From: an uncultured Candidatus Saccharibacteria bacterium
GTDB lineage: Bacteria > Patescibacteriota > 4484-211 > JAGQKX01
Reading direction: 5' to 3'
Length of the DNA stretch: 64,000 nt
NCBI GenBank assembly: GCA_964392315.1
Contig: CAYMOT010000002.1
Span: 139,637 to 203,636 of the forward strand
Shown here: in pieces, positions 1-13,432 of the stretch
Position numbering within the stretch: position 1 is the first letter of the stretch
Layout of the letters: each line of letters opens with the position of its first letter
Notes under the pieces: model-generated
What the model was told of the DNA's origin: nothing
What the model saw: the letters and a program-made list of their open reading frames with translations, nothing else
Databases searched by the model: none
Made by a program: the position numbers and the translations under genes

Positions 1-1
1 A

Positions 2-964
2 GGAAAACGTTATTCATTGCACGAAGGTATCGTCCAAGTTCCAGGTATTGCAGTTAACAATAATGCTGACATTCCTCGCTATCGTGCGGGGAATCTCAAG
101 CTTGTGTTTGGTGTCGTGTTTTCGCTGGACAAAGAGTCAGTAGATGAGCTTAACGCGCTGCAGCAAACGGAATACGATTTTTCAAAAATGAACGGACTTA
201 AATATGGATTGAGCGGAGCCGTTGAACAACTTGCGTACTATCATGATGTTTTGCATACATATGCAGATGATTTGCAATTAGTTCGTTCTCGCGCAGACTA
301 TGAAAATCTGGCCGGCAAGATAGGAATGCTTCTGCACTTAGAAGGGATAGATTATATTTCAGATATTTCCTTACTTGAATCGTTTTATAAAATGGGAGTG
401 CGAAGTGTCGCAATGACGTGGAGAAATAAAAATATTTTTGCTTCGGGAAATAATGTGGAAGGTGGTTTGACCGATGTAGGAAGAGAATTGATAGCAAAGA
501 CACGAGAACTCGATATGGTTTTTGATCTGGCACACGCTAATCCACAGACGTTTTGGGATGCAATGGAAGCTATTGATTTTCCTTTCATGGTCTCGCATAC
601 ACTCGTCAATGCGATTAAAGAAAACTCACGCAATCTCACAGACGATCAGATAAAGGCAGTGGCTCAGCGAGGTGGGGTCATCGGTATTGCGACAATCCCT
701 GATTATATGACTGGCGATTCAATGGATGATTATGTTGACCAGTTTGACTATATCTTGAAATTGGTCGGAGAGGATCATGTTGCGTTTGGTACTGACTTTG
801 ACGGGTTGGTCGATCCGACTGATCGTTTTGTGCAGGGATTTGAAGACGCGTCAATGTATCAAAATGTGTTACAGGCTTTTGACAAACGAGGTTTCTCAGA
901 ATCCACTATTGAGAAGATCGCGTATAAAAACGCTGAGCGGTTAATCTTGTCAGCGCTTTCCTAG
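2..964 (+). CDS. Membrane dipeptidase (peptidase M19 family), 5'-partial. The frame is open to the window start.
   Basis: C-terminal motif GEDHVAFGTDFDG matches the M19 'G.DHVG.GSDFDG' signature; VSHTLVNAIKENSRNLTDDQIKA..GGVIGI matches the M19 core. The N-terminal HxD motif is absent, so the gene starts upstream of the window. Confidence 0.7.
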   Translation, partial: GKRYSLHEGIVQVPGIAVNNNADIPRYRAGNLKLVFGVVFSLDKESVDELNALQQTEYDFSKMNGLKYGLSGAVEQLAYYHDVLHTYADDLQLVRSRADYENLAGKIGMLLHLEGIDYISDISLLESFYKMGVRSVAMTWRNKNIFASGNNVEGGLTDVGRELIAKTRELDMVFDLAHANPQTFWDAMEAIDFPFMVSHTLVNAIKENSRNLTDDQIKAVAQRGGVIGIATIPDYMTGDSMDDYVDQFDYILKLVGEDHVAFGTDFDGLVDPTDRFVQGFEDASMYQNVLQAFDKRGFSESTIEKIAYKNAERLILSALS

Positions 965-969
965 GTTCT

Positions 970-1881
970 ATGATTATAGATGTGCATACTCACGTTGGAT
1001 TTAATGCGAAGCGTGCATTTAACGGTATTCACCCGTTCTGCCAATCAGCTCAGGATTTGGTGCGGAAGATGGACCAGTTTGGCATTGATACAGCAGTCAC
1101 TTTTCCCTTCGAGCCTACTCTATATGATGACCCGAAAGATTACTACACCCTTATTCCAACAGGCTTAATGGAGTATCCGTATCAATATGAAAATCGGCTT
1201 CTCATAGATCAAGTGAAAAAATTTGGCAAGGATCGTTTGATTCCGTTTGCATGCGTCGATCCACTACGAGAGGTTGATAAACAAGCAGCACAATTACGAG
1301 CATGGGCAGAAGAGGGTTTAATTCGTGGTTTTAAAATTCACACAAAAAGTATGCAAGCAGATGGTAGAACTATGATTAATTCGCCATTTGCTGCTATTGC
1401 GGAAGAGTTCAAGCTGTCAATGCTGTTTCACACCTATATGCAAGAGGTTGCGCACCCGCTGCATGTGATGGAGTTTGTAAAAAACCATTCAAGCATCCAT
1501 GTGTGTATTGCGCATGGCGGTGGGTTTATTCAAGAGTTTTATGATGAGCTGGAGAAAGTAAACCCACAGAATTTTTTCATTGACCTCTCCCCTACTACAG
1601 CACTCCTAACTTTTATCCGGAAAGAATCAAAAGAACGGGGATTTACGGTGTTAGATCTGCCGTATGAAAACCCACAAGAAGTTGTCCAGCAGATGGTAAA
1701 GAACTATGGGGAATATATTGTGTTTGGGACTGATGAGCCGTTCACCACCTACATTAATGATTTAGAAGGTGGGTCGATCATATCGGATATGGGAAAAGAG
1801 TTAGAGATATTTAGATCGCTGTCTACAGAAGATTTTGAAAAAGTAACTGACAGTAACCCGAGACGGTTTTTGCATCTTTAA
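970..1881 (+). CDS. Amidohydrolase-family metal-dependent hydrolase (TIM barrel)
   Basis: N-terminal IIDVHTHVGFN (the HxH metal-binding start typical of amidohydrolase 2); 303 aa; lies 5 nt after the dipeptidase stop, so likely in an operon with it. Confidence 0.55.
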   Translation: MIIDVHTHVGFNAKRAFNGIHPFCQSAQDLVRKMDQFGIDTAVTFPFEPTLYDDPKDYYTLIPTGLMEYPYQYENRLLIDQVKKFGKDRLIPFACVDPLREVDKQAAQLRAWAEEGLIRGFKIHTKSMQADGRTMINSPFAAIAEEFKLSMLFHTYMQEVAHPLHVMEFVKNHSSIHVCIAHGGGFIQEFYDELEKVNPQNFFIDLSPTTALLTFIRKESKERGFTVLDLPYENPQEVVQQMVKNYGEYIVFGTDEPFTTYINDLEGGSIISDMGKELEIFRSLSTEDFEKVTDSNPRRFLHL

Positions 1882-1936
1882 GTTCAGGAAGATGGAGAGA
1901 AACAGGAGCCGGTTCGGCCGGCCCCTGTTTGGGTTA

Positions 1937-3484
1937 CTACTTGCGCCAATTGGCGCGTTTTTTCATCCAGTTGACGATGCCTTCAAGCTCCGAAGGCTCT
2001 TTTTCGATGGCGATTGGATGGAGTCTCCACCCGCCGAGAACCATATCGAGTTGCGAGCTGACAAACCCTCGCAGGAAACACTGTCCAGCAGGGCTGGACA
2101 GGAGCGTAGCAGCATCTGTCTCGAGGGCTGCCTGCTTCTCTCGAAGCGTGGCGCGTTCAGGGTCTACTTCCGATCGTGCTCCTGCGACCGCTTGCTGAAC
2201 TGCTTCGCGGGTTGGGGCTTTCTTTAGTGCACTGAGCAGGCGAGGATTTAGTTGTTGCACTTCTTTCTCAGCCCACCGACGCAGTAGGTCTTCGTCTTCT
2301 GGCGCCTCCAAGTCGACTTGCTCGCGAATCGCTTTTGCCCGGTGACTTTGCTCTTCAGCGAGCTTGTTCCACGCCTCGTACATTTCAAGCAATCGGTTGA
2401 CAGTAGGAGCGGCCCAGTCTGGCGTCCAAAAGTACTTGAGATGATTAGACGGATGAAGGACGTACGTCACATCCTTCGGAAGCCCGAGTGGATCTGCAAG
2501 CAGGTCCCACAGCTGTTCGATTTCGGCACGACGCTCAGCGGATTCGTCATCATCGAGCAGGTACGTCACCATCGAGGTCCCGCTGATGTGATGGACCAAT
2601 TCGCCGCCTGACCGAGCGAGCTGTGCCATCACCGGCAGCACGACATAAGCCGTTGTGTCAAGAATTGCTCCACTCATACGAAATAAGTCGGGTTTCTCAC
2701 CCGGCTTACTAAGAATCTCCGCAATGTACTGCATGAGCTGGAGCGCGATTTTCGACAGTAGTTCTGTCGGTATCTGCGGTCCTCCGTGGTAGCGCGTCCG
2801 GATCGGGCCAACGTCTCGTAAGGGCCGGCGTACACCTTGTTCCACCCACTCGTAAAAGTGGCGAGGCAGATGTTGGGCGATCAGTGCAAGTGCCTCCGGG
2901 AGTTTATCCCATGACAGCAGAAACTCACTCGCACTTATCGGATTAGCGTGCGGGAAGGCATAGCGTAGCATACTGTAGTGATACTGCGCAGGCGTCTGCG
3001 CATGCACCGCAAGCAGCCCTGGTGGAACGATTCTTTCAAGCTGGCAAGCCACTTCCCATTGCATGCCTCCCTTTGAGGCAAGTCCGACGATGGGGTTGGG
3101 CAATACCGAACCCATCATACCGCTCCAAACACCGAGCAATTCTTCCCACTGCTGTTGCAAGCGTGCAGTGAGTAGAAAACCGGGTTGGAACGTGTAGGGT
3201 GGCTTAGCCCAGATTGCCGCAGGACCGATAACCTGCCCATCGTGGCTGACGATAAGGCTCGCGCCGTCATAGGTCAACGTGTCGACAGGGTATGCACCGT
3301 CGCCAGCGGGGGTGAACTCGTGCTGAATGAAATCCAGCCCGTGGCCACCTAACGCTGCAAGAACGGCTAGCCGCTGGCTGTTTTGTGTGCCAATATGAGA
3401 TGAGGTCCCGATTGGGACACCACCATCCAAAGCTTCTCGTAGTCGGTTGAGGGGATCATTGCCTCTTACTATTGTGAAAGCCAT
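1937..3484 (-). CDS. Hypothetical 515-aa protein, GC-rich; paralog of the 6808-8241 gene (unknown family, HHISGTSM motif)
   Basis: Longest ORF in a visibly GC-rich segment. GGAGG Shine-Dalgarno 7 nt upstream of the ATG at 3484. Ala/Arg/Leu/Pro/Trp-rich composition unlike neighbouring proteins. N-terminus MAFTIVRGNDPLNRLREAL aligns with MPINFVNGSQITLRESLEF of the 6808 gene; shared ..YAFPH.. and ..SGTSM.. blocks. Confidence 0.7.
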   Translation of the reverse strand: MAFTIVRGNDPLNRLREALDGGVPIGTSSHIGTQNSQRLAVLAALGGHGLDFIQHEFTPAGDGAYPVDTLTYDGASLIVSHDGQVIGPAAIWAKPPYTFQPGFLLTARLQQQWEELLGVWSGMMGSVLPNPIVGLASKGGMQWEVACQLERIVPPGLLAVHAQTPAQYHYSMLRYAFPHANPISASEFLLSWDKLPEALALIAQHLPRHFYEWVEQGVRRPLRDVGPIRTRYHGGPQIPTELLSKIALQLMQYIAEILSKPGEKPDLFRMSGAILDTTAYVVLPVMAQLARSGGELVHHISGTSMVTYLLDDDESAERRAEIEQLWDLLADPLGLPKDVTYVLHPSNHLKYFWTPDWAAPTVNRLLEMYEAWNKLAEEQSHRAKAIREQVDLEAPEDEDLLRRWAEKEVQQLNPRLLSALKKAPTREAVQQAVAGARSEVDPERATLREKQAALETDAATLLSSPAGQCFLRGFVSSQLDMVLGGWRLHPIAIEKEPSELEGIVNWMKKRANWRK

Positions 3485-3802
3485 CGTAACCTCCGTTTAC
3501 AGAAATTTGAAGGGGCGTGCTTCGAATACATCCGTGTCAGGGGATGACACAAGAAACAATAAACCGCGGAAGCAGCACGGTCGTGTTCCTTATCGGTTTT
3601 CGTGACGATGCACGTCGGATCCTGCGGGGAAACGCATTGATTCCTCAATCGTTGGCGTTTAATCCGATAGAGAAGAGATAGTGTTGGGTACTATCATTTG
3701 GAGAGATATGTGCAGGTGGTGGGGATTCTAAGCGAACTTAGGAGGAGGAGAGGGGAAAAAGAGAGGAAGGTACAAAGGGGAAAGGAGTTAATAAGCGTTC
3801 AT

Positions 3803-3838
3803 TTACATATTTGTACTATTTGCATATTTGCTTATTTT
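3803..3838 (+). promoter_or_regulatory. Copy of the TTGTAC-TATTTG promoter-like motif (-35 TTGTAC, 16-nt spacer, -10 TATTTT) with no plus-strand gene downstream
   Basis: ATTTGTACTATTTGCATATTTGCTTATTTT. It lies between two minus-strand genes, so it is either an antisense/sRNA promoter or a protein-binding site used in either orientation. Confidence 0.3.
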
Positions 3839-3904
3839 CTCCTCCCCCACTTATACCGATTCCTCGTAAGTTGTTAATGTTCCTGACAAAGAGGCAGTGG
3901 ATTT

Positions 3905-6016
3905 TTAGATGAGCGTTTGCTCAAGATATGCATTGCCGGTTGATCCGTTGAAGTAAAGCGTGTAGAGCAGCGGGAATCCTAAAAAGCTCAAAAAACGATT
4001 ATGTTTCCCTTGTTGTGGCCTATAAAATTCTTCGAGTACATTAACAACAGCAGTTTTTTCGTTATTGCTCTGTTGCATGATTGCATCCAGGTAAGGTGTT
4101 TCATTGATTGATTGCTGTAATCTCGAGAATGTCATTGGTGTTTCTTGAATTAACTCTTCGACAAGTGCATCGCGTTTGGCAGGCGATAATTCATGCTGAT
4201 ATACCTCAACCATCAGTTCGTGTAAATTGGTGCTATCCGAATTTATGCCTTCGAGACGATGCACTGGGTTACGCTCTAGATACATTGATTGCAGTAGCGA
4301 TGGATAGCGTTTATACAGAGTGAGCGCAATGTCAAATAAAATGCATCCACTCACAAACTCGCCATTATAATCCTCTATCAACTCAATTACCTTTTGTCCG
4401 TTATCGTAGGTTAAGTAAATATTATTTCCTTTTTCCAGAACAGAATATGCTTCTGAACCTGAATGATGTGTCAGAACATATTTCAAGATATCGTGAGAAA
4501 GTGCTTTTACTACAGGGCTTGATTCAAGTGTCAACTCGTCAAGTGGGTACCCAAGATCCTCTAACATTTTGAAATACGTGTCGTAATTGATACGGTTGAT
4601 CACATGGTATTCATCAATCATTGCAGTACGTTCGATGCGGAGCGTAGGATTTAGCTTTGTAATAACATCGATTACATAATTTGCGATGAGTACTCCTGCA
4701 CGTTGGGATAAGCCTTCGTTTCTGTCTGCATGCACGTGTGCGGTCTCGATGTTCATGGCGGTATGACTCAACGCCAATTGTTTCACTACTTCACTTTCCT
4801 CAAGTCCTGTTTGTGGAAGTTTTGTATTCCAATCGACCGGGAAATATTCTTTTATAGTACCGGTGCGCATAACAACGCTTCCGGACCGGATTTTTTGGGT
4901 GGCAAACCACTCCTGTAGGTTGTTCGCCGGTAGTATTTTGCCGGTAGATCCTTTTTTGTTAAGCATCTCTTCAAACTCATTCGTGCTTTGAAAGGAAGTA
5001 GTAATGTCCGTTGGAATCAACAATACGATATCTTTCTGCCCTATTTGTAGCTGTGTAGATTGGAAAGGCGTTGCAGAATGACCGCCCAGTGAATAGTCAT
5101 TGTGCTCAGGAGAAATGACATGGGTAAGTTTTTTGGTAAAAAAATCTTCTGCGCTTTTGGGAGAAAGTTGCACTATACTTGCATTTCCAATGAGCACGGT
5201 CTTGACATATCGTATGCCGTCTTTTACATATTCTTGTGCGCCGATGAATCCTATACCTTCTGCAATTTTGCGAAGATATGCATAATAATCGAGTAGCAAA
5301 TTAGATACCTCAAATGGGTATTGTGTCAAAAAACGCTCGTACACGTCTGCCAATTCTTTGATCTCAGGTCGGGATTCTTGTGAATCTCCATTATTCGTGA
5401 ATACGCAGGCAACGATATTATCGGTTTTGTTTTTGTATACTGCTATGTAATTAGCGTTTATTTCACGCCTGCCTTCAGTATTACTTTCAGAGTGGACAGG
5501 TAAGTATTCAGTAGTATAGCCTCTATCGACGCCGCGCTCGTTAATTGCCATAAGAAATCTGTGAAAGTCTTTGCACTGCCGATATGTCGTTTCCGCATCT
5601 AAGATGGCATCCTCATCGTTTTGTTCTTTTAGAACTGCATCCAATCCCATGATTCTGGAAAAATGGCCAAATTCATCCCGGATCTCATGCTTTTGTGCGG
5701 TTTCTTTATCAGTAAGACAAAGCTCGTTAAAGGGTGTACCAAATTCCAATAGCGCAGAGATTTCGCTTTTGATCTCTTCGGTATAGGGCTGATTTAGTTC
5801 TAGCTGTGAAAAGATAGTCTCTAACGTAACTGAAGCGCCATTTTTGGCACTTTCTGCGAGGATCATGAGTTCTGCTTTGGTTAGCTCATAAAATTGTTGT
5901 TGTTTATTAAGGGGTAAGGCATAAAAGATATCGACATCTAAGCCTTTAAAGTCGAGCACGAGCTGTGCTACCCCCTGAGGCAGGGTGTGAGTTTTGTTTG
6001 CTATTACATTTTCCAT
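3905..6016 (-). CDS. Hypothetical 703-aa protein (AT-rich; no recognisable domain)
   Basis: Long intact ORF with Lys/Asn/Ile/Glu-rich composition typical of the host. A perfect TATAAT lies ~23 nt upstream of the ATG. No SD. It sits 40 nt downstream of a minus-strand tRNA, so co-transcription is possible. Confidence 0.65.
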   Translation of the reverse strand: MENVIANKTHTLPQGVAQLVLDFKGLDVDIFYALPLNKQQQFYELTKAELMILAESAKNGASVTLETIFSQLELNQPYTEEIKSEISALLEFGTPFNELCLTDKETAQKHEIRDEFGHFSRIMGLDAVLKEQNDEDAILDAETTYRQCKDFHRFLMAINERGVDRGYTTEYLPVHSESNTEGRREINANYIAVYKNKTDNIVACVFTNNGDSQESRPEIKELADVYERFLTQYPFEVSNLLLDYYAYLRKIAEGIGFIGAQEYVKDGIRYVKTVLIGNASIVQLSPKSAEDFFTKKLTHVISPEHNDYSLGGHSATPFQSTQLQIGQKDIVLLIPTDITTSFQSTNEFEEMLNKKGSTGKILPANNLQEWFATQKIRSGSVVMRTGTIKEYFPVDWNTKLPQTGLEESEVVKQLALSHTAMNIETAHVHADRNEGLSQRAGVLIANYVIDVITKLNPTLRIERTAMIDEYHVINRINYDTYFKMLEDLGYPLDELTLESSPVVKALSHDILKYVLTHHSGSEAYSVLEKGNNIYLTYDNGQKVIELIEDYNGEFVSGCILFDIALTLYKRYPSLLQSMYLERNPVHRLEGINSDSTNLHELMVEVYQHELSPAKRDALVEELIQETPMTFSRLQQSINETPYLDAIMQQSNNEKTAVVNVLEEFYRPQQGKHNRFLSFLGFPLLYTLYFNGSTGNAYLEQTLI

Positions 6017-6056
6017 TTGCTTATTTGTTTGTTTGCATATTATAAATTTGTTGACT

Positions 6057-6133
6057 TGGCTCCCCGGGAAGGATTCGAACCTCCAACCAACTGCTAAGAA
6101 TACAGCCGCTCTGTCCTATTGAGCTACCAGGGA
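6057..6133 (-). tRNA. tRNA, anticodon read as TCT (Arg); atypical anticodon loop (AUUCUUA, U at position 37)
   Basis: Cloverleaf folded by hand. Acceptor TCCCTGG/CCGGGGA, D stem GCTC/GAGC, T arm GGAGG-TTCGAAT-CCTTC, encoded CCA. The anticodon stem GCTGT/GCAGT needs two G-U pairs. Confidence 0.6.
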
Positions 6134-6142
6134 TATAAATAA

Positions 6143-6190
6143 ACCTCCGGTGAGGGAGGTTCTGGTTCTTTTTTTATTTTTTTAATTTAA
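6143..6190. terminator. Intrinsic terminator hairpin ACCTCC-GGTGAG-GGAGGT followed by a T-run (bidirectional context)
   Basis: Perfect 6-bp stem plus TTCTGGTTCTTTTTTTATTTTTT on the plus strand; A-rich on the other side. Confidence 0.55.
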
Positions 6191-6526
6191 TTTTAGCGAG
6201 AACCCCCTATACCGTCTTTGTGATCCAGAGGACCATAAAGAAAAAAGTAATGAGACCAATAAGCATATGCTTGCTGGCCTGGGGGGTACGATAATTTGTT
6301 GTTGCTAAAATTTGGGTCATACGTCGGCTTTCTCTTATAACAGAAATTTGGCAAATCTGTCAACAGGTTTTTTGACAGAGTTAGAATACTTGTGGTATAT
6401 ACGTGTTTCATGGAAACGTCCTTATCGAGTATACAACCAAAGCGTTGGCACCAATATTATGGTTACCGGTTTACCGCGGGAGGTCTTTTCATGTTCTAAA
6501 TCCATATACAAATAAATAAACGAAGT

Positions 6527-6556
6527 ATGTTGCCTCCCGAACGGGAGGTTTTTTTG
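6527..6556 (+). terminator. Intrinsic terminator CCTCCC-GAAC-GGGAGG + TTTTTTT
   Basis: GC hairpin immediately followed by 7 T; 12 nt after the stop of the small ORF 6312-6515. Confidence 0.55.
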
Positions 6557-6637
6557 TATATGGGCACATTAACAACTAAAGTATAAAGACGGGTCACGTG
6601 TAAATTATCCGGTACAAATATTTCTTTTTGCATGTTT

Positions 6638-6681
6638 TCATTTGCTTAATTGTACTATTTGCATTATTTGCTTATTAATTT
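6638..6681 (+). promoter_or_regulatory. Sigma70-like promoter carrying the recurrent TTGTAC-TATTTG motif (-35 TTGTAC, 17-nt spacer, -10 TATTAA)
   Basis: TTGTACtatttgcattatttgctTATTAA lies ~125 nt upstream of the SD-supported start at 6808. The same motif recurs in >=10 intergenic regions. Confidence 0.5.
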
Positions 6682-6807
6682 TTGCCTGTCCCCTCTTTGT
6701 AACCCCTCTATCCTCGTTTTTATAAAGCCACTTTCCTCTTGTGGCAAAACCGCCCGGTTTTACAAATCCTCGCTTGTTTGGGAGCACACGTAAAAAGGAG
6801 TAGATCA

Positions 6808-8241
6808 ATGCCAATCAATTTTGTAAATGGTTCTCAGATTACACTGAGAGAAAGTTTGGAGTTTAACGGCCGCGGCTCTCGAACGCCGCATCCCGGTTGG
6901 GAGAATACGATGACCACGATTCTTGCCCAACTTGGGGTACCTATTGAATTGTGTTGGGAAGTGCGTGCAGATCTGAAAGGGTATCGCGTGACACATCTTG
7001 GCGGTCATCGCATATCGCAGGACGACGCGAAGTGTGGTCCGTGGGCGCAGTTTGATGTGGTGAAGTGGGCAACGGTCAGGGCCACCTTACCTGGCAGTGT
7101 TCAATCGGTCGTTTCAACCTGCTGTACGCCGTTTCAAGCACACATGGCACTAGCAAAAGCAGCGTTTCCGCACATACAAACATCGGCTGATCTGTACCTT
7201 CGTCACGGCGAATTGGTGCAAAAAGCGCTAGATGTGCTTGCTCATAGTAGGTTTCGTGAGCATTTTGCGAAATATGTAGACGGCCAAGGGTATCTGCATC
7301 CAATCTACCAGGCACATGGTAATACCGTGTATTACCAGGGAAACCAAAAGGTGCACGCCCCACACCTGGAAGGCGGGTATATGAGACTCCTTGAGTTTGT
7401 GAAGGCGTCACAGAAGCACGGCGCCCAGGTTGCCTATCCCGCTTGGGGAGTGCTTCCTGATGCGCGGATTCTATGTCTACTGGATATGGTGGTGTATGCA
7501 CTGAGTGGGAATATTGACCACGTGTATGCGTGGTCGGGCACGTCGATGATGCAATACATCCTCAAAGAAGCTGATTCACAGCGGTGGCGAGAGATTGTGT
7601 CAGGGATGTATGACTTGGTGCGGCAACGTGCTTTGCCGGAGTTACCACGAGTATTAGATTTCACGCTAATACCTACGTTGGGTTTGGGTGATCTGGCTGT
7701 GACAGATGCAAGCATGGCGCAAGCAGTTAATACCCAACTGTGTCAGTTAAATGTTGCGGGAGTACGTGAGGAGCGGACAGACAAAGTTGGTTTGCAGCAA
7801 ATGGCGCGTGATGATGCGTATGCATTCTTGGCGCACATTGCTTTGTCCCTGGAGCCAAACGCGTGCACTGAGATTGCTCAGATGCTTGATGACGGCAATT
7901 GGCAAGGTGCCGGCGGCAAAGCTTCGGCATTGATATCTCTGCGCAGCAAAAAGCAGCACGTATGTGATCGGCATGTGGTTGAGGCTGAGTTAGGAGAACT
8001 GCTGCGAGATAACACCGGAAGATTTGTCCTTGCCAATCAACCGGCAGTAGATGCGCTGGCGTATGCAAACGGTACGCGATTGCACCTGTTGGTGGGTGTT
8101 TTGGATATTCCGGCAGGTAAGTTTGATTCGTATCGGGCGCGATTGGCAAACATCGCGTCGAGAGGGCAACGTAAAAATACTTCTCAAGAAGATGGTCCTC
8201 TCTTGCCCTATTTCAATAGAGCTGGGTGGATGCTAGAGTAA
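6808..8241 (+). CDS. Hypothetical 477-aa protein, GC-rich; paralog of the 1937-3484 gene
   Basis: AAAGGAG SD 8 nt upstream of the ATG at 6808 (the ORF track start at 6739 is probably too early). N-terminus and the internal AFPH / AWSGTSM blocks align with the 515-aa protein. GC-rich. Confidence 0.7.
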   Translation: MPINFVNGSQITLRESLEFNGRGSRTPHPGWENTMTTILAQLGVPIELCWEVRADLKGYRVTHLGGHRISQDDAKCGPWAQFDVVKWATVRATLPGSVQSVVSTCCTPFQAHMALAKAAFPHIQTSADLYLRHGELVQKALDVLAHSRFREHFAKYVDGQGYLHPIYQAHGNTVYYQGNQKVHAPHLEGGYMRLLEFVKASQKHGAQVAYPAWGVLPDARILCLLDMVVYALSGNIDHVYAWSGTSMMQYILKEADSQRWREIVSGMYDLVRQRALPELPRVLDFTLIPTLGLGDLAVTDASMAQAVNTQLCQLNVAGVREERTDKVGLQQMARDDAYAFLAHIALSLEPNACTEIAQMLDDGNWQGAGGKASALISLRSKKQHVCDRHVVEAELGELLRDNTGRFVLANQPAVDALAYANGTRLHLLVGVLDIPAGKFDSYRARLANIASRGQRKNTSQEDGPLLPYFNRAGWMLE

Positions 8242-8250
8242 ATAGGAGGT

Positions 8251-8293
8251 ATAAAAAAAAGCCGGCCGCCCACAAGGGGCGTCCGGCTTTTTG
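8251..8293. terminator. Bidirectional intrinsic terminator (A-run, AGCCGGCCGCCC-ACAA-GGGGCGTCCGGCT hairpin, T-run)
   Basis: Sits between convergent genes (6808-8241 + and 8365-8754 -). GC-rich stem flanked by A8 and T5. Confidence 0.6.
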
Positions 8294-8364
8294 CGATTAG
8301 AGCGACATCATGTACGCAAGTCGCTCCATCTGGTATTCCAATTCAGCCGCACACTCACGACATG

Positions 8365-8754
8365 TCAGACCTCCTCGTTGAAAACATAACCGAGCCATTG
8401 CAGCACGGGGCGGACATACTTGCCGCCGCAGTCGAGCCAGATAACCGAACAGCTCGCGACATCGAAAATGCCAAGAGCCACTTCCTGCTTCTGGACGACT
8501 GTTCCTTCCTGGTAGCCCATTTGCTTCAGGGCCTCGATCACGGTCGGGGTGACCGACACGCGATTAATCAAGATGGCGCCATATCCGCGTCGCTGGTATT
8601 CTTCGGTACCTTGGAAGTACCTTACCCAGTGTTCGATAGCGATTTTGGCGCTTTCCACATCCGCGCCGAACGAATATTGCCGTCCTTCTACGAAGGTGAA
8701 GCCGGACGTTAACCTCAGCCAGTACTCGCCGAGCGTCATGGTGGGGATTGTCAT
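8365..8754 (-). CDS. Hypothetical 129-aa protein, possibly a GNAT-fold acetyltransferase
   Basis: GGAGGTG SD 5 nt upstream of the ATG at 8754. The ATGA overlap with the upstream 181-aa gene means translational coupling. QRRGYGAIL resembles GNAT motif A (Q/R-x-x-G-x-G/A). Confidence 0.45.
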   Translation of the reverse strand: MTIPTMTLGEYWLRLTSGFTFVEGRQYSFGADVESAKIAIEHWVRYFQGTEEYQRRGYGAILINRVSVTPTVIEALKQMGYQEGTVVQKQEVALGIFDVASCSVIWLDCGGKYVRPVLQWLGYVFNEEV

Positions 8755-9296
8755 TTCCCACCTCCGACGACCGCACCGCAGCGGATGCAATAATCACGCA
8801 ATACGGCTTTATCGTTGACGAGATCTCCGAGTCGACGCGTACCGTGGTTGTGTTCACACTTCGCGTATGTCCAATAGGGTTGATCGAGAATGTTCCAACC
8901 CACGCGGGCGTACATGAAGGTCTTATAGTGAAGTACGCAAGGCGCCCACGGTATCGTTCCTTCCGGGCATACCGTAAAGGTTGCATAGTGCTCGTGGGAT
9001 ACCCGAGTCACTCTTGATATCCCTTCACTGTGCGCACGAAGTACAGCTGACGTCCACCCTGTGGGGACGTAGGTGGGGATGCGCGAAGACATGCCGAACC
9101 AATATACGCTCTTATCACCCTCAAAAATAGCAACAAGAGTTGTTGCATCGACCGAAAGCGCAATGTAATACGACATGACCTGCTCTTTTTCGATGCCGAG
9201 AATTTCTGCAACCTCGGACAGTTTGTTCCAACCCCATTTACCGAACTTGAAGGGTTGGATGTTCGGAAACCGATAAACCGCTGGTGCTACTATCAT
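8751..9296 (-). CDS. Hypothetical 181-aa protein with a C-terminal Cys/His cluster (CEHNH..CIRCG)
   Basis: AAGGAAGG SD upstream of the ATG at 9296 (ORF track start 9347 is probably too early). GC-rich. Its stop overlaps the start of the 129-aa gene. Confidence 0.45.
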   Translation of the reverse strand: MIVAPAVYRFPNIQPFKFGKWGWNKLSEVAEILGIEKEQVMSYYIALSVDATTLVAIFEGDKSVYWFGMSSRIPTYVPTGWTSAVLRAHSEGISRVTRVSHEHYATFTVCPEGTIPWAPCVLHYKTFMYARVGWNILDQPYWTYAKCEHNHGTRRLGDLVNDKAVLRDYCIRCGAVVGGGK

Positions 9297-9767
9297 ACTT
9301 TCCTTCCTTTTCAAGGATGCCTTAGGAAAGATTCGTTTAACGCCCATCGGCGTTCTGATCTGAATTGTGCATACCCTAGATGCAACGGGCCAAATCAGCC
9401 CGTGGTGTCTCCGTGAGACGAGTGAAGCTGAACATTGGGTTACTTCATCTAAGAAGTTCTAAACTGGGTGTTTAGAGCAATGCAGCAAGTTATATGGCTT
9501 GTTTTCTTTTGGTGGGAACCTAAAAAAACAAAGGTGTGAGGGGTATTGTGACATATATGCAGGGAGGCATATGTTTGTCTGGGAAGCGTCAGGTAGGGAG
9601 CCTGATTTTGCAAACGTGTGCAGTGCTTCTAATTGGTCGTAAAGACCGTAAAGCGGGGAGTCTTGGGAGAGGAGAGGAAGATAGGAAAGTACAAATAAGC
9701 AGATAAGCAAATACTATAGGACCAGCTTGGTTAAGTAAGGATCTGATTGATAAGGGTATTGAAACAT

Positions 9768-9796
9768 GAAAAAAGCCACCTTTTCCAAGGGTGGCT
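9768..9796 (-). terminator. Intrinsic terminator for the 458-aa gene (GCCACC-CTTGGAAAA-GGTGGC + T-run on the minus strand)
   Basis: Hairpin 40 nt after the stop at 9836, followed on the minus strand by TTTTTT. Confidence 0.6.
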
Positions 9797-9835
9797 CTGC
9801 GAATCGCCCGGCTGGGCCGAGCGACTCATAAATGG

Positions 9836-11212
9836 TTACTTCTTGCTTGTCAATGCGTCAAGCCAATTGGCCAAACGCTCCATCCATCGTGGAATGGGGA
9901 ATCTCATTCCCACCAACTCATCGAATTGAGAGGCAGTAACGGCTTTGGCCAACGCACGACGGATCGCGTTTCGGAAACGCAGTGCACGGATGTGAGATCT
10001 GCTCCAAGGTTGTATCTCAAATCGGGGTCTTTCACCGGGATGCCAGATTACTCCGACAGCAACACCGTCGTCTTTGTTTCCAAAGAGATCGAAGCCGTAC
10101 TGTGTACCGGCGTATTCCCCCATCCAGCGCTCGAAGCGCTCTCCTGTTCTGTTCTCCTCGTTAGGCAGGTTCTCCAGGATCGCCTCCACGATGTGCCGGC
10201 AAAGGTGTAGCGTTTCCACTGGACCATAGGGTTCAATTCCCTTCCAATCTCGTCGTGAGAATGAACGGAACACCTGAACAGTCCTTTTTGGATACTTACC
10301 CTGATTATTGGAGATTACTGTATTGCAAAATCCAACATATTCGAGAGCAGGGTTTTCCAAAAAAAGTCTGTCCACTAGCCAATACAGAATTCTCGGCAGT
10401 TCTTGTGTACCTCCAGATGGCGCGAGGAAGACGTGGGTAACAGGAAGATGCTCCATGGAATCTTGAATCGACGTGGGAGTGAAATGGTTCTTGAAGAAGA
10501 AAGTCTCAAGTGTACCCGTAATCCCTAATTCAGTCGATAAACCTGTATCCAGGTCAACACCATGATACCGGTCATCATCATCAAGGAGCTGCACGATCAA
10601 CCCAAATGGACCCGTTACCGGTCCATAATGTTGCCAATAACTGCCATTGGCTGAAGTCACCTTCCAGAAGACACGATTGATTGGCTCGACGCGTGTCTCC
10701 AGGTACGGGAATAGTTGTCGAACCAATTCACCTTGATCATGTTCGTAGGTAACCGGGATCATCCCTTTAGGCAGCCTAGGACGAGCGTATCGGTCTCCAA
10801 CCTTTAGGGCTTGGATACTTCCACCCTTTGGATCTCGGGCCATCATCCAATCGCCACCCCAGTCATAGAGTTCTTCGAGTCGACCTGTTTCTAACAGGTG
10901 GTTGTAGATATCAAAGAACTCTTGTGAAGTCATTGGCCAGCCCGTGGATGCGACTTGGACATTCCAGAAGTGTCCGATGAACGGACTTGTCCGAACGAGC
11001 TCATCGATTTGGGTGGGTATTGCTTTTAAGGCGTCCAATTTGGACATTGGAGCTGATCTCAGAAACCTCCCATCATAGGCTGCAAACGCCTCAAATTGCT
11101 CTTTCCACCAAATGTGAGAAATACCCACCGATATCCACGGTATCCTCAGATTGGTGGGCTTACCCGGTCTTACTTCGATGTACGGCTTACGTGAAACCAT
11201 CCCACTCGTCAT
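9836..11212 (-). CDS. Hypothetical 458-aa protein (GC-rich, Trp-rich, LLDDDDRYHGVDLDTGL acidic block)
   Basis: Long intact ORF in the GC-rich block. ATGA start/stop overlap with the upstream 98-aa gene. Dedicated terminator downstream. No domain recognised. Confidence 0.6.
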   Translation of the reverse strand: MTSGMVSRKPYIEVRPGKPTNLRIPWISVGISHIWWKEQFEAFAAYDGRFLRSAPMSKLDALKAIPTQIDELVRTSPFIGHFWNVQVASTGWPMTSQEFFDIYNHLLETGRLEELYDWGGDWMMARDPKGGSIQALKVGDRYARPRLPKGMIPVTYEHDQGELVRQLFPYLETRVEPINRVFWKVTSANGSYWQHYGPVTGPFGLIVQLLDDDDRYHGVDLDTGLSTELGITGTLETFFFKNHFTPTSIQDSMEHLPVTHVFLAPSGGTQELPRILYWLVDRLFLENPALEYVGFCNTVISNNQGKYPKRTVQVFRSFSRRDWKGIEPYGPVETLHLCRHIVEAILENLPNEENRTGERFERWMGEYAGTQYGFDLFGNKDDGVAVGVIWHPGERPRFEIQPWSRSHIRALRFRNAIRRALAKAVTASQFDELVGMRFPIPRWMERLANWLDALTSKK

Positions 11213-11505
11213 GACGCCACCTCCGCATGTCCGTTGCCAAGACGCAGTTGTTCGCGGACGATTTCCAGAACGTCATCGCGGACTGATGCCGTATAGGCAT
11301 CAACCCGGAAATAGAGCCCTGAGATATCGATCGTAACAAAGTTGCCATCAAGGCCTATGCGTACCGGAACAGAGGGCACTTTTAGGGGAACCGTGATCTC
11401 AGCATCCAGATCAAGCAGAGCGAGAACTTCCTCGCGACCGAACAAAACGGCCCACTTCGAATGGCCGTTTATTCCAACGGAAATAAAACGTTTGTTTGTA
11501 TTCAC
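11209..11505 (-). CDS. Hypothetical 98-aa protein (GTG start), first gene of a coupled pair with the 458-aa gene
   Basis: AAGGAG SD 6 nt upstream of the GTG at 11505. Its stop overlaps the ATG of the 458-aa gene. Confidence 0.45.
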   Translation of the reverse strand: MNTNKRFISVGINGHSKWAVLFGREEVLALLDLDAEITVPLKVPSVPVRIGLDGNFVTIDISGLYFRVDAYTASVRDDVLEIVREQLRLGNGHAEVAS

Positions 11506-12365
11506 AACATTCTCCTTACATCATCTTCTAAAGGAAAACACGTTGGCGTTCCCAGCTTCCCGGGCTGAGGGTTTTTGAACACAGTTTGATGCAACTATGC
11601 GTCGCATCGAGGACAGGCTAAAAGCGGATGCATGTAAAACCAAAATCACGCATCACACTATCCTCTCGTCTTAACCCAGTCGTCAGTAAAACGACCTGGA
11701 TTTTGAAGACTTCTCGTGTTGTCGTCACGAGCATTAAATGGACCGTTTCCATCGGGTGATGGAAATCCTACTAGGAGATTCGGCCATTCCTCACGGCCAC
11801 GGACTCGCCACGTATGACGAGCCGTTCGCAGTTGATCCAAAACTGCTTTTGGAGCTGACTGACACATCAGCTTTTTGTATGAGGGGAATTGCAGGCGCAT
11901 GCACGGTAGCCCATGCATGGCAAATATGCGGGGACAGAACTTGAATGGTGAATTCAAGGTGTTTTCTTCAATACCAGTCGGGAGACAGGTAAGGAAAAAA
12001 CGAGGGTTTTTGGTAGGAGTTTTGTCAACCTAACTGACAGGGTGGTCAGTATAACGGTTGTATTGAATCATTTGATTGGGAGTCAAATGTGTCTTTGATA
12101 GACGTATTCAATTAGAGGAATTGAAAAAGGGTGGGGGTCGAAAGAGAGAGGAAAGGTATACTTTGTGTTTTTGCCAAGAATCAACTTGATCCATGGGTTA
12201 TTAGTTAATTAACAAAGTGCACGTTTCCTCCATCTTAAGTACCTTGATCCTTTCTAGTCCTACTTTCCCTATTCCCTCATACATAATATATATAGATTGT
12301 TAATGAACGGAAAATATGGTGCGAATTATACGCGTAAATTACATATATGTAAATACTATGGGACC

Positions 12366-12930
12366 AATATGTCATTTAAAAAATGTTATAGAAAGATACT
12401 GTAGTGTATGCAGCAAAAAGCCCTCCGCATCTCCCCCATAGTTTGGAGTTGCGAAGGGCAGCTATTAGGCCAATATAGTACATGGCCTTTTTAAGTCCCG
12501 AAGGACTCGAACTATTTTCTTGGCTGGCTCTACACCGTAGCCCCAAGAGCGCCGTTCGAAGGCTGAGGAGTCCGCTACCCTTACACATGTAAGGACGGCT
12601 GAAGATCTGTTACCAGACCTTTTGTTTTGGTACGCACAAGTCGTACCCTCCGCTACTCACCTGCCCTCTTTCGATCTCGCAGGTTGCCGTATGACTTGAG
12701 TAGCCGCATAGGCTGTATTGGTGAGTATTATGATAATTCTTTTGGTTCAGGAAGTGCCGAGGGGCAGGCGATTCCAGGCACCTACCCCTCAAACATCCGT
12801 CCTCCGGTGATTCACGCCTCGCTTCGTGAACATTTATGCCTTCATGTACAACACATCTAGAGTAATAAGCTAATAATCAAATAATCCAATAAACAAATAT
12901 ACAAATAAATTGAAAGGCCTATAAACGAAT
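12366..12930 (+). ncRNA. Candidate large structured non-coding RNA of unknown class
   Basis: ORF-free 1.3 kb gap. GC-rich island (12400-12860) inside AT-rich DNA. Nested perfect helices (GCTACTC..CCTGC..GCAGG..GAGTAGC) and a pseudoknot-like GTGCC/GAGGGG..GGCAC..CCCCTC arrangement. An upstream AAATACTATGGGACC promoter-like motif and a downstream CCTCCC hairpin terminator (12932-12968) bracket it. tRNA-Leu follows. Confidence 0.3.
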
Positions 12931-13236: not shown

Positions 13237-13280
13237 GATTTGCTTATTTGTACTATTTGTAGTATTTGTTTATTACTCAG
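13237..13280 (+). promoter_or_regulatory. Sigma70-like promoter for tRNA-Leu (-35 TTGTAC, 17-nt spacer, -10 TATTAC, 5-6 nt to the tRNA 5' end)
   Basis: TTGCTTATTTGTACtatttgtagtatttgttTATTACtcagG, where the final G is tRNA position 1. Confidence 0.55.
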
Positions 13281-13365
13281 GCCGGTGTGGTGAAATTGGC
13301 AGACACGCTTGGTTTAGGACCAAGTGCCGAAAGGCTTGGGGGTTCAAGTCCCTCCACCGGCACCA
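13281..13365 (+). tRNA. tRNA-Leu (anticodon TAG), class II with a long variable arm
   Basis: Hand-folded. Acceptor GCCGGTG/CACCGGC, 3-bp D stem, anticodon arm CTTGG-TTTAGGA-CCAAG, 13-nt variable arm, T arm GGGGG-TTCAAGT-CCCTC, A73, encoded CCA. Confidence 0.85.
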
Positions 13366-13432
13366 CAAAAAATAATTTCAAATAATCAAATATACAAATA
13401 AGCAAATAGAAAGAGGGTAATTTTCGAATACG

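Follow-up and report, generated by a model that had tools for sequence, protein, structure and literature searches.

The window analysed here is a 64,000-nucleotide (nt) stretch of contig CAYMOT010000002.1 (G000:C2:139637-203636), taken from the 995-kb, 9-contig genome of an uncultured Candidatus Saccharibacteria bacterium (G000). Near its left end, at positions 1885-11960, lies a GC-rich block of genes which a first-pass annotation had treated as a single unit of foreign DNA. This block is the right end of a ~52-kb mosaic of accessory genes (C2:98.9-151.6 kb), and so represents the tail of a larger patchwork that starts 40.7 kb upstream of the window. The region is probably a flexible accessory part of a wastewater Candidatus Saccharibacteria chromosome, a patchwork of differently aged modules and not one insert. 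Saccharibacteria are obligate epibionts with genomes of ~1 Mb, and the accessory DNA they keep is a clue to their dealings with hosts and environment.

The genome has a mean GC content of 0.432 with a standard deviation (sd) of 0.036 in 1-kb bins. In 300-nt windows, GC content is 0.55-0.57 at positions 1951-3450, 0.36-0.45 at 3751-6750 and 0.49-0.56 at 6751-9150, dips to 0.43-0.47 at 9301-9900, recovers to 0.45-0.55 at 9901-12000 and is 0.34-0.44 just past 12000. These values confirm the GC-rich block, but with a contrast of ~50-57% against 41-43%, not the mid-50s against upper-30s estimated by eye in the first-pass annotation; the abrupt switches described there are real and coincide with gene ends. 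Codon usage is not uniform either. Against a background GC content at third codon positions (GC3) of 0.387 +/- 0.051, calculated from the 829 open reading frames (ORFs) outside the GC-rich region among 885 ORFs of >=100 amino acids (aa), the block genes are outliers with z scores of +2.1 to +6.2: the 477/500-aa gene at 0.49 (z 2.1), the 458-aa gene at 0.50 (z 2.3), the 181/198-aa gene at 0.54 (z 3.0), the 515-aa gene at 0.57 (z 3.6) and the 129/141-aa gene at 0.70 (z 6.2). The 703-aa gene has a GC3 of 0.39 (z 0.1). The block genes are GC-rich at all three codon positions. The gene layout, including both pairs with 4-nt overlaps and the tRNA-Arg gene, is as originally described (Table 1).

GC-rich DNA occupies C2:98.9-137 kb (window -40.7 to -2.6 kb), 141.5-143.1 kb (the 515-aa gene) and 146.4-151.6 kb. 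The left-hand neighbours of the region are tRNA-Val(gac) (C2:96724) and the trigger factor gene; on the right, tRNA-Leu(tag) marks its boundary, and a polysaccharide deacetylase, a sortase and normal core-type genes come after it. High GC3 (above the mean + 2 sd) is found in 64 ORFs, and 48 of these fall in C2:98.9-151.65 kb, 5% of the genome; this fraction of the chromosome is a recombining patchwork of genes without known relatives. The 56 upstream ORFs match just 7 Pfam families, compared to 71 for the 45 ORFs located at 12-64 kb of the window. The seven consist of UPF0182, CitMHS, two HATPase_c-type models on one 613-aa protein, CSD, and weak matches to CSDE1 and CarboxypepD_reg. Scans of the block proteins against Pfam, PHROGs and NCBIfam were all empty, in keeping with the earlier statement that none could be assigned to a family.

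The 39-kb upstream stretch, C2:98,900-137,000 (L013, L014), has 50-59% GC, a GC3 of up to 0.79 and ORFs that are nearly all ORFans. Within it, genes of 564, 395, 245 and 585 aa follow one another at C2:121.7-127.1 kb without a Pfam match or an informative PHROG match; the 245-aa ORF has a weak lipoprotein PHROG match only (E 8e-4). Also encoded in this stretch are a divergent 1068-aa UPF0182 protein and, on the minus strand at G000:C2:113581-116015, a 613-aa HATPase_c_3 (MORC-like ATPase) protein with a 198-aa partner, a pair which is kept at G002:C4:30237-32880 with 42% and 38% identity, respectively. The pair may form a two-gene system, for which defence is one possibility; PADLOC gave no clear match. 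A second, small GC-rich ORFan patch lies at G000:C3:76,700-82,000 (L045), with a GC3 of up to 0.81 and a Pfam family in none of its five ORFs.

Comparison was made with three related populations, among them L004, with ~72% nucleotide identity, and L042, which is nearly the same strain. In L004, the flanking enzymes are 68-89% identical at the protein level with saturated synonymous divergence (dS 1.5-3.8), and the gene order is as here: a 469-aa paralog, the 703- and 515-aa genes, Amidohydro_2, M19, arginase and aminotransferase. Identity to L042 changes sharply along the block. It is 100% from window -1200 to 1200, with a 100% identical M19 gene, then falls to 93% at a left crossover located inside the Amidohydro_2 gene at ~1200 and ranges from 78 to 99% over 1200-4200, a tract that takes in all of the 515-aa gene together with two-thirds of Amidohydro_2 and part of the 703-aa gene, in both cases from the 3' end. 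Identity returns to 99.7-100% over 4200-6600, is 98.7% in the 6600-6900 window and 90-92% over 6900-7500, and drops to 61-77% from 7500 to the end of the alignment at ~8400, such that the 3' part of the 477-aa gene has been replaced between close strains. The corresponding dS values are ~0 for arginase and M19, 0.26 for both Amidohydro_2 and the 515-aa gene, 0.04 for the 703-aa gene and 0.77 for the 477-aa gene. To the right of ~8400 only short scattered matches occur, and L042 carries other GC-rich ORFans there (329, 101, 100, 259, 273 and 633 aa). Both ends of the divergent tract (~1200 and ~4200) lie inside normal-GC genes, suggesting that the GC-rich allele moves by homologous recombination with its neighbours serving as homology arms. 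The 515-aa gene itself is common to L004 and L042.

The short genes on the right of the block are restricted to the lineage: with the exception of the 515/477-aa family, no block ORFan has a homologue outside it among 5.8 billion clusters. The 129-aa protein has two other clusters only in that collection (75% and 68% identity), and its ortholog in L004 (68% identity) evolves with a dN/dS ratio (non-synonymous to synonymous divergence) of 0.22. The 181-aa protein is 43% identical to a 177-aa protein of L042. The 458-aa protein has no homologue but itself among the clusters, and searches of the ESM Atlas and IMG/VR were also empty. The 458- and 98-aa genes lie in a 2.6-kb unit that varies between strains as a presence/absence indel: L042 has 89 nt in its place, L004 lacks it, and among contigs from metagenome studies it is intact in X1 and X2 and skipped in X7, where position 9712 is joined to 12758 via 253 other letters. 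An imperfect direct repeat surrounds the unit (Table 1), and the 16-mer core of this repeat occurs twice in the window compared to an expected 0.09 occurrences. At the site of the unit, L042 (L042:11190-11330) has a long, near-perfect hairpin with arms of ~45 nt.

Variable presence among relatives, as would be expected of acquired DNA, is borne out. In a set of 40 GTDB relatives (0.5-2 Mb genomes), the profile of the 515-aa family matched G012 only, in the same order and adjoining M19, and no other relative yielded the block genes; to this are added the 458/98-aa indel and the replacement of everything right of ~7500 in L042. M19 is present in 3 of the 40 and was not found in the two genomes of the same family, implying that the enzyme module of normal GC content is accessory as well. 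This module, as found in G000, comprises an aminotransferase, an arginase, the M19 dipeptidase, Amidohydro_2, the 515- and 703-aa genes and an extra tRNA-Arg gene.

The 703-aa gene had been regarded as an AT-rich insert and an orphan. It is instead a conserved operon partner of the 515-aa gene, as a trio made up of a 675-677-aa gene, a 543-561-aa long-type homologue of the 515-aa gene and Peptidase_M19 was found in four distant low-GC Patescibacteria-type contigs (L035, L037, L038/L039). In the trio the long-type homologue lies between the other two genes, with starts that overlap or abut. The 703-aa protein and the 676-aa protein of L035 are full-length homologues (28% identity, E 2e-62), and identity to the counterpart in the closer relative L004 is 71%. 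More broadly, M19 lies within 5 kb of a family member in 18 of 51 carrier genera, versus 0 at random places. In L038, trigger factor and tRNA-Val(gac) are located within 10 kb of the trio, an indication that genes now separated by 39 kb of GC-rich DNA in G000 were once neighbours. An ESM Atlas search with the 703-aa protein returned SpoIIE/PP2C at a score of 0.92 with just 114-120 shared features, a weak lead. The 414-aa neighbour of a short-type homologue (L040), considered as a possible counterpart, showed no relationship to the 703-aa protein and was not found in this genome.

The paralogy of the 515- and 477-aa proteins proposed in the first-pass annotation holds up, though the relationship is a distant one (24% identity over 187 aa; E 8e-10; alignable over the full length). 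The 477-aa protein is a short-type paralog, with 63% identity to the 469-aa protein of L004 across 467 aligned residues. A word-based search with the 515-aa protein found three relatives only, all metagenomic (76%, 76% and 54% identity), and an exhaustive profile search with six family members as the query found 217 remote homologues. A census of 36,145 genera placed the family in 51, ~45 of them Patescibacteriota; it is present in ~1% of Patescibacteriota genera. No Pfam or NCBIfam family was matched at E <= 0.1, the BshC model was matched by none of 68 superfamily members, and the family profile retrieved nothing meaningful from PDB sequences; a Pfam domain was seen in one of the 68 sampled members, a fusion to HGTP_anticodon. 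The 515-aa gene is under purifying selection (dN/dS 0.20 versus L042 and 0.04 versus L004), and dN/dS was 0.04-0.24 over the genes compared.

An AlphaFold (AF2) model of the 515-aa protein, built from a 68-sequence alignment, reached a predicted local distance difference test score (pLDDT) of 95.1 and a predicted template modelling score (pTM) of 0.91; an earlier run with 6 sequences (pLDDT 55) was discarded. When this model was compared to 48,161 chains with VIA-align, the best match was BshC (4wbd; Z 13.1, 329 residues, root-mean-square deviation (rmsd) 12.9 A), followed by class I LysRS (1irx; Z 11.2, 243 residues, rmsd 4.1 A) and, without interruption, by more than 20 class I aminoacyl-tRNA synthetases (aaRS), namely ArgRS, GlnRS, GluRS, CysRS and MetRS, at Z 5-8. 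MshC (3c8z; Z 6.2), cyclodipeptide synthases and nicotinic acid mononucleotide (NaMN) adenylyltransferases were also matched. The Foldseek ranking agrees, with BshC on top, though every match was above E 0.001. On the model, the protein is predicted to have a class-I-aaRS/BshC-like Rossmann-type nucleotidyltransferase fold, which would extend to its 477-aa paralog. A HIGH-type motif (consensus R-S-A-H-[VI]-G-N) includes H30 and G32, present in 67 of 67 homologues, and its H-x-G is placed after strand 25-30 and before helix 36-48, the HIGH position of the superfamily. A second conserved block, H299-x-S301-G302-x-x-M305-x-x-Y308, follows strand 296-301, with G302 and Y308 in 68 of 68.

In the model, the 515-aa protein shares with BshC and MshC a length of ~500 aa and an architecture in which a Rossmann domain of the class-I-aaRS type precedes a long C-terminal coiled coil of helices, its last 150 residues being long helices as in BshC. 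It differs from both in having no sequence-level membership and in a gene context of an M19 dipeptidase and the 703-aa partner instead of thiol-synthesis genes, and the large rmsd to BshC indicates a different domain arrangement. The fold and the H-x-G after the first strand are likewise shared with the catalytic domains of class I aaRS; unlike these enzymes, the protein has no recognisable anticodon-binding domain, carries H-[LF]-S-G-x-x-M-x-x-Y in place of KMSKS as the second motif, and has a patchy accessory distribution, the ordinary translation synthetases of the genome being separate genes. With its 703-aa partner and M19 dipeptidase, this aaRS/BshC-fold family represents a new, undescribed enzyme family that lacks a Pfam or NCBIfam model; nearly confined to Patescibacteria and modelled at high confidence, it is a new target for biochemistry.

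These results can be assembled into an account in which the region holds two kinds of module. The first would consist of accessory enzymes whose core trio (703-like, 515-like and M19) is shared with distant Patescibacteria, and the second of ORFan cassettes confined to the lineage (129/181 and 98/458), which are exchanged between strains or carried by some and not by others. The region would change via homologous recombination between related strains with crossovers in flanking normal-GC genes, and short indel events would add or remove cassettes without a detectable integrase. Natural transformation is a plausible route of DNA uptake; how the DNA entered is something we infer, since the scans showed neither an integrase or transposase nor a phage gene. 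The GC-rich genes may have come from, or been exchanged with, a GC-richer and essentially unsampled pool, probably within or around the Patescibacteria. Part of the excess GC at codon positions 1 and 2 would be intrinsic to the protein family: the L035 homologue has a GC3 of 0.22, which is that of its own genome, and a raised GC content at second positions (GC2; 0.40 versus ~0.31), which indicates that part of the GC excess is built into 515-family proteins and that the GC3 excess in this lineage is not.

Several observations weigh against this account. Pfam and PHROGs, run on the flanks as well as on 8 ORFs of the window and the 56 upstream of it, revealed no integrase, transposase, phage or conjugation family, and no donor could be named from homology searches of the block proteins or the UPF0182 census. 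The dinucleotide signature of the window part is ordinary (delta* 31-43 versus a genome mean of 42), being elevated only in the upstream part of the region. The GC mosaic persists in L004 at saturated dS, where the 515-aa gene has a GC3 of 0.54 versus 0.41-0.46 in its flanks. In G002, a genus of the same family, a 16-kb stretch of 50-56% GC lies beside trigger factor; it encodes weak homologues of three island ORFs, with the 613/198-aa pair on the other side of trigger factor, and the GC-rich variable region here therefore predates the genus. Given the mosaic in L004 and the GC-rich stretch in G002, simple acquisition followed by amelioration requires either that the source was very rich in GC or that input went on. 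High GC3 at saturated dS would fit three scenarios: an import of long ago out of a very GC-rich source, since ameliorated in part; recurrent input out of a GC-rich pool; or biased gene conversion at a hot spot of recombination. On the enzymatic side, the equivalence of the H299...Y308 block to KMSKS/ISST is uncertain, and it is from the modelled fold that we infer that the 515- and 477-aa proteins would bind ATP and adenylate a carboxylate (e.g., of an amino acid) for ligation. Of the original proposal of horizontal acquisition, what stands is that the DNA looks foreign, is accessory and is in flux; it does not form one block, and its presence as the same GC mosaic in L004 means that it is not simply recent.

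An explanation that dispenses with import holds that these are long-resident genes whose high GC is actively maintained, either by GC-biased gene conversion in a recombination-hot region or by sequence selection. The retention of the GC3 excess in L004 (0.54 for the 515-aa gene and 0.70 for the 129-like gene) at saturated dS favours this, as do the GC-rich stretch at the same place by trigger factor in G002, the heavy recombination of the locus, the presence in the intergenic spacers of the genome's own 8-nt repeats, and the intrinsically raised GC2 of the family. Reported effects of gene conversion on GC3 in bacteria, however, amount to a few points and not to 15-30. In addition, the normal-GC genes in the same recombining tract (Amidohydro_2 and the 3' end of the 703-aa gene) are not GC-enriched, the 458/98-aa unit is a plain presence/absence insertion, and the ORFan content fits imported DNA. 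Maintenance of high GC in resident genes is consequently held to be unlikely, although it fares better than any other alternative to the flexible accessory region.

It is doubtful that the region represents a mobile element integrated into the chromosome, whether intact or decayed (a prophage, integrative element or plasmid of Saccharibacteria). The region is large, contiguous and ORFan-rich, has tRNA-Val and tRNA-Leu at its ends, carries an extra tRNA, and includes the 25-nt direct repeat around the 2.6-kb unit. Yet no duplicated 3' end was seen at either flanking tRNA, and native accessory enzyme genes are interleaved with the ORFans. The 56 + 8 ORFs scanned hold no integrase, terminase, portal, capsid or conjugation family. 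The PHROGs matches are limited to a cold-shock protein, a weak lipoprotein, a weak regulator and unknowns, and IMG/VR scans with the 458-, 564- and 585-aa proteins gave no match. An integrase was sought beside tRNA-Val, but the 370-aa ORF there is trigger factor. The suggestion that the cargo is a defence or toxin module is unsupported: a PADLOC scan covering the 56 upstream ORFs, with the 8 window ORFs outside its scope, returned CSD_V and a weak PDC-M01B match only.

Still less probable is the single recent acquisition favoured in the first-pass annotation, by which one block from a high-GC host or partner (e.g., an actinobacterial Saccharibacteria host) was later split by an AT-rich insert. 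Such an origin would suit genes that are GC-rich at all three codon positions and unfound in most relatives, and UPF0182, represented by a gene in the upstream part of the island, is a common family in Actinomycetota yet rare in the present phylum, where one sample had it in 2 of 101 genomes and a census in ~150 of 4172 genera. The census found no close relative of the island UPF0182 copy in Actinomycetota or any other phylum, however, and what was taken for an insert is the 515-aa gene's conserved partner. With the 515/477-aa family nearly confined to Patescibacteriota and the other block proteins restricted to the lineage, a high-GC host as donor is not indicated. The segments also differ in history, and the mosaic is common to a relative at saturated dS.

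The weakest alternative, an assembly or binning artefact joining DNA of two organisms, draws on the metagenomic origin of the genome and the abrupt GC switches but is refuted, as far as contigs can show, by independent assemblies from several studies that span all GC/AT junctions. The junctions fall at gene ends within single contigs, with no N run within the region, and contigs of three studies bridge every one: X7 covers 1-5910, X1 covers 340-2074, 5881-8362 and 9221-12354, and X2 covers 3477-7619 and 9328-12494. The stretch 1500-9500 is present in at least 11 wastewater, sludge and bioreactor metagenome studies. A 113-kb Logan contig (run ERR2586217) is identical across the 21.5 kb fetched and may stem from the source sample. 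The same mosaic occurs in L004 and L042, and the source genome is 100% complete and 1.06% contaminated by a CheckM-type estimate. A contig of another metagenome-assembled genome (MAG) is 94-95% identical to and collinear with C2:97857-119534, crossing the left junction; the block of the window was not found in that genome. The contig is CAZBOT010000030.1 (genome G109; L017/L021), from a MAG labelled Candidatus Saccharibacteria and listed at 2.8 Mb; at about three times the usual size for the group, G109 is probably a mixed bin.

Flexible genomic islands in free-living bacteria are known to be replaced by homologous recombination. The region described here is a flexible genomic island of the kind already reported for Patescibacteria, in which such islands account for up to 13% of genomes (PMC12455944). 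Like these islands of Patescibacteria, or candidate phyla radiation (CPR) bacteria (PMC12455944), and those of free-living bacteria, it is a compositional outlier, rich in ORFans, strain-variable and beside tRNA genes, with most exchange seemingly within the phylum. It differs from known islands in that no mobility gene was found, in its mosaic composition with interleaved normal-GC accessory enzyme genes, and in a GC-rich state common to relatives at saturated dS and to another genus at the same chromosomal position. This persistence of the GC-rich state across genera poses a small puzzle about amelioration. The findings suggest that even a reduced genome can draw on a gene pool of its own that is largely unsampled, and that homologous recombination serves for this with no obvious machinery of mobile elements.

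Table 1. Features in and around the GC-rich block (window coordinates; + and - denote strand).
Feature	Position	Strand	Remarks
Peptidase_M19 dipeptidase	2..964	+	5' end just outside window; normal GC; PF01244 at G000:C2:139560-140582, E 4.5e-75
Amidohydro_2 family hydrolase	970..1881	+	Normal GC; Pfam PF04909, E 3e-16
515-aa gene	1937..3484	-	55.8% GC
AT-rich 8-nt-periodic repeat (AAATA/TATTT core)	3801..3838		In 420-nt spacer between 703- and 515-aa genes
703-aa gene	3905..6016	-	Normal GC
tRNA-Arg(tct/UCU)	6057..6133	-	
Further 8-nt-periodic repeats	6640-6677, 12861-12915, 13238-13275, 13370-13416; also 19436, 39357, 52902		Intergenic
477-aa gene	6808..8241	+	51% GC; ORF extends to TTG at 6739
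129-aa gene	8365..8754	-	4-nt overlap with 181-aa gene; highest GC3 of block
181-aa gene	8751..9296	-	4-nt overlap with 129-aa gene
Imperfect 25-nt direct repeat around 2.6-kb unit	9700..9724 and 12342..12366	+ (first copy)	84% identity; spacing 2642 nt
2.6-kb strain-variable unit (458- and 98-aa ORFans, doubtful 99-aa ORF)	9712..12296		Presence/absence indel
458-aa gene	9836..11212	-	4-nt overlap with 98-aa gene
98-aa gene	11209..11505	-	4-nt overlap with 458-aa gene
Doubtful 99-aa ORF	11658..11957	-	
tRNA-Leu(UAG)	13281..13365	+	Marks right end of variable region; 93% conserved in L004

The tRNA-Arg(UCU) gene shares its strand with the 703-aa gene and precedes it by 41 nt. Among the 45 tRNAs of the genome, it is the sole one with a redundant anticodon and the sole one with a pyrimidine at position 37 (U37); the two tRNA-Arg(UCU) copies share 70 of 112 aligned columns, flanks included. 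The extra copy is 100% identical in G000, L004 and L042, even though protein genes compared to L004 are at saturated dS. No tRNA adjoining the trio was found in the distant genomes. The aminotransferase by the arginase (G000:C2:137467-139519, window -2169 to -117) has its best scores, below the cut-off, to GntC, VioD and beta-methylarginine aminotransferase. An arginine theme in the module is suggested by these scores to arginine-modifying pyridoxal phosphate (PLP) enzymes together with the arginase and the extra tRNA-Arg, and tRNA binding in the 515/477-aa family is hinted at by the one member with a fused HGTP_anticodon domain. It is conceivable, if rather improbable, that the 515-aa enzyme and its 703-aa partner constitute a tRNA-dependent system and not a small-molecule ligase, using in this lineage the atypical tRNA-Arg(UCU) directly upstream; they would then charge, or draw on, an aminoacyl-tRNA outside normal translation and feed a peptide or arginine pathway with the M19 dipeptidase, the arginase and the arginine-type PLP enzyme.

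The AT-rich 8-nt-periodic repeats form 22 clusters genome-wide, versus 0 in shuffled sequence, and several adjoin tRNA genes; one possibility is that they form a promoter or an array for protein binding. Their use as marks of cassette boundaries was considered and rejected, as they are intergenic throughout the genome and show no enrichment in the region. Contigs of other strains sometimes join at these repeats (e.g., 9712 to 3801, and 6639 to 12918 inverted). Elsewhere in the genome, a tRNA-Ile with the anticodon TAT is encoded at G000:C1:94865-94939; this tRNA is uncommon in bacteria, in which AUA is mostly read by a modified CAT tRNA.

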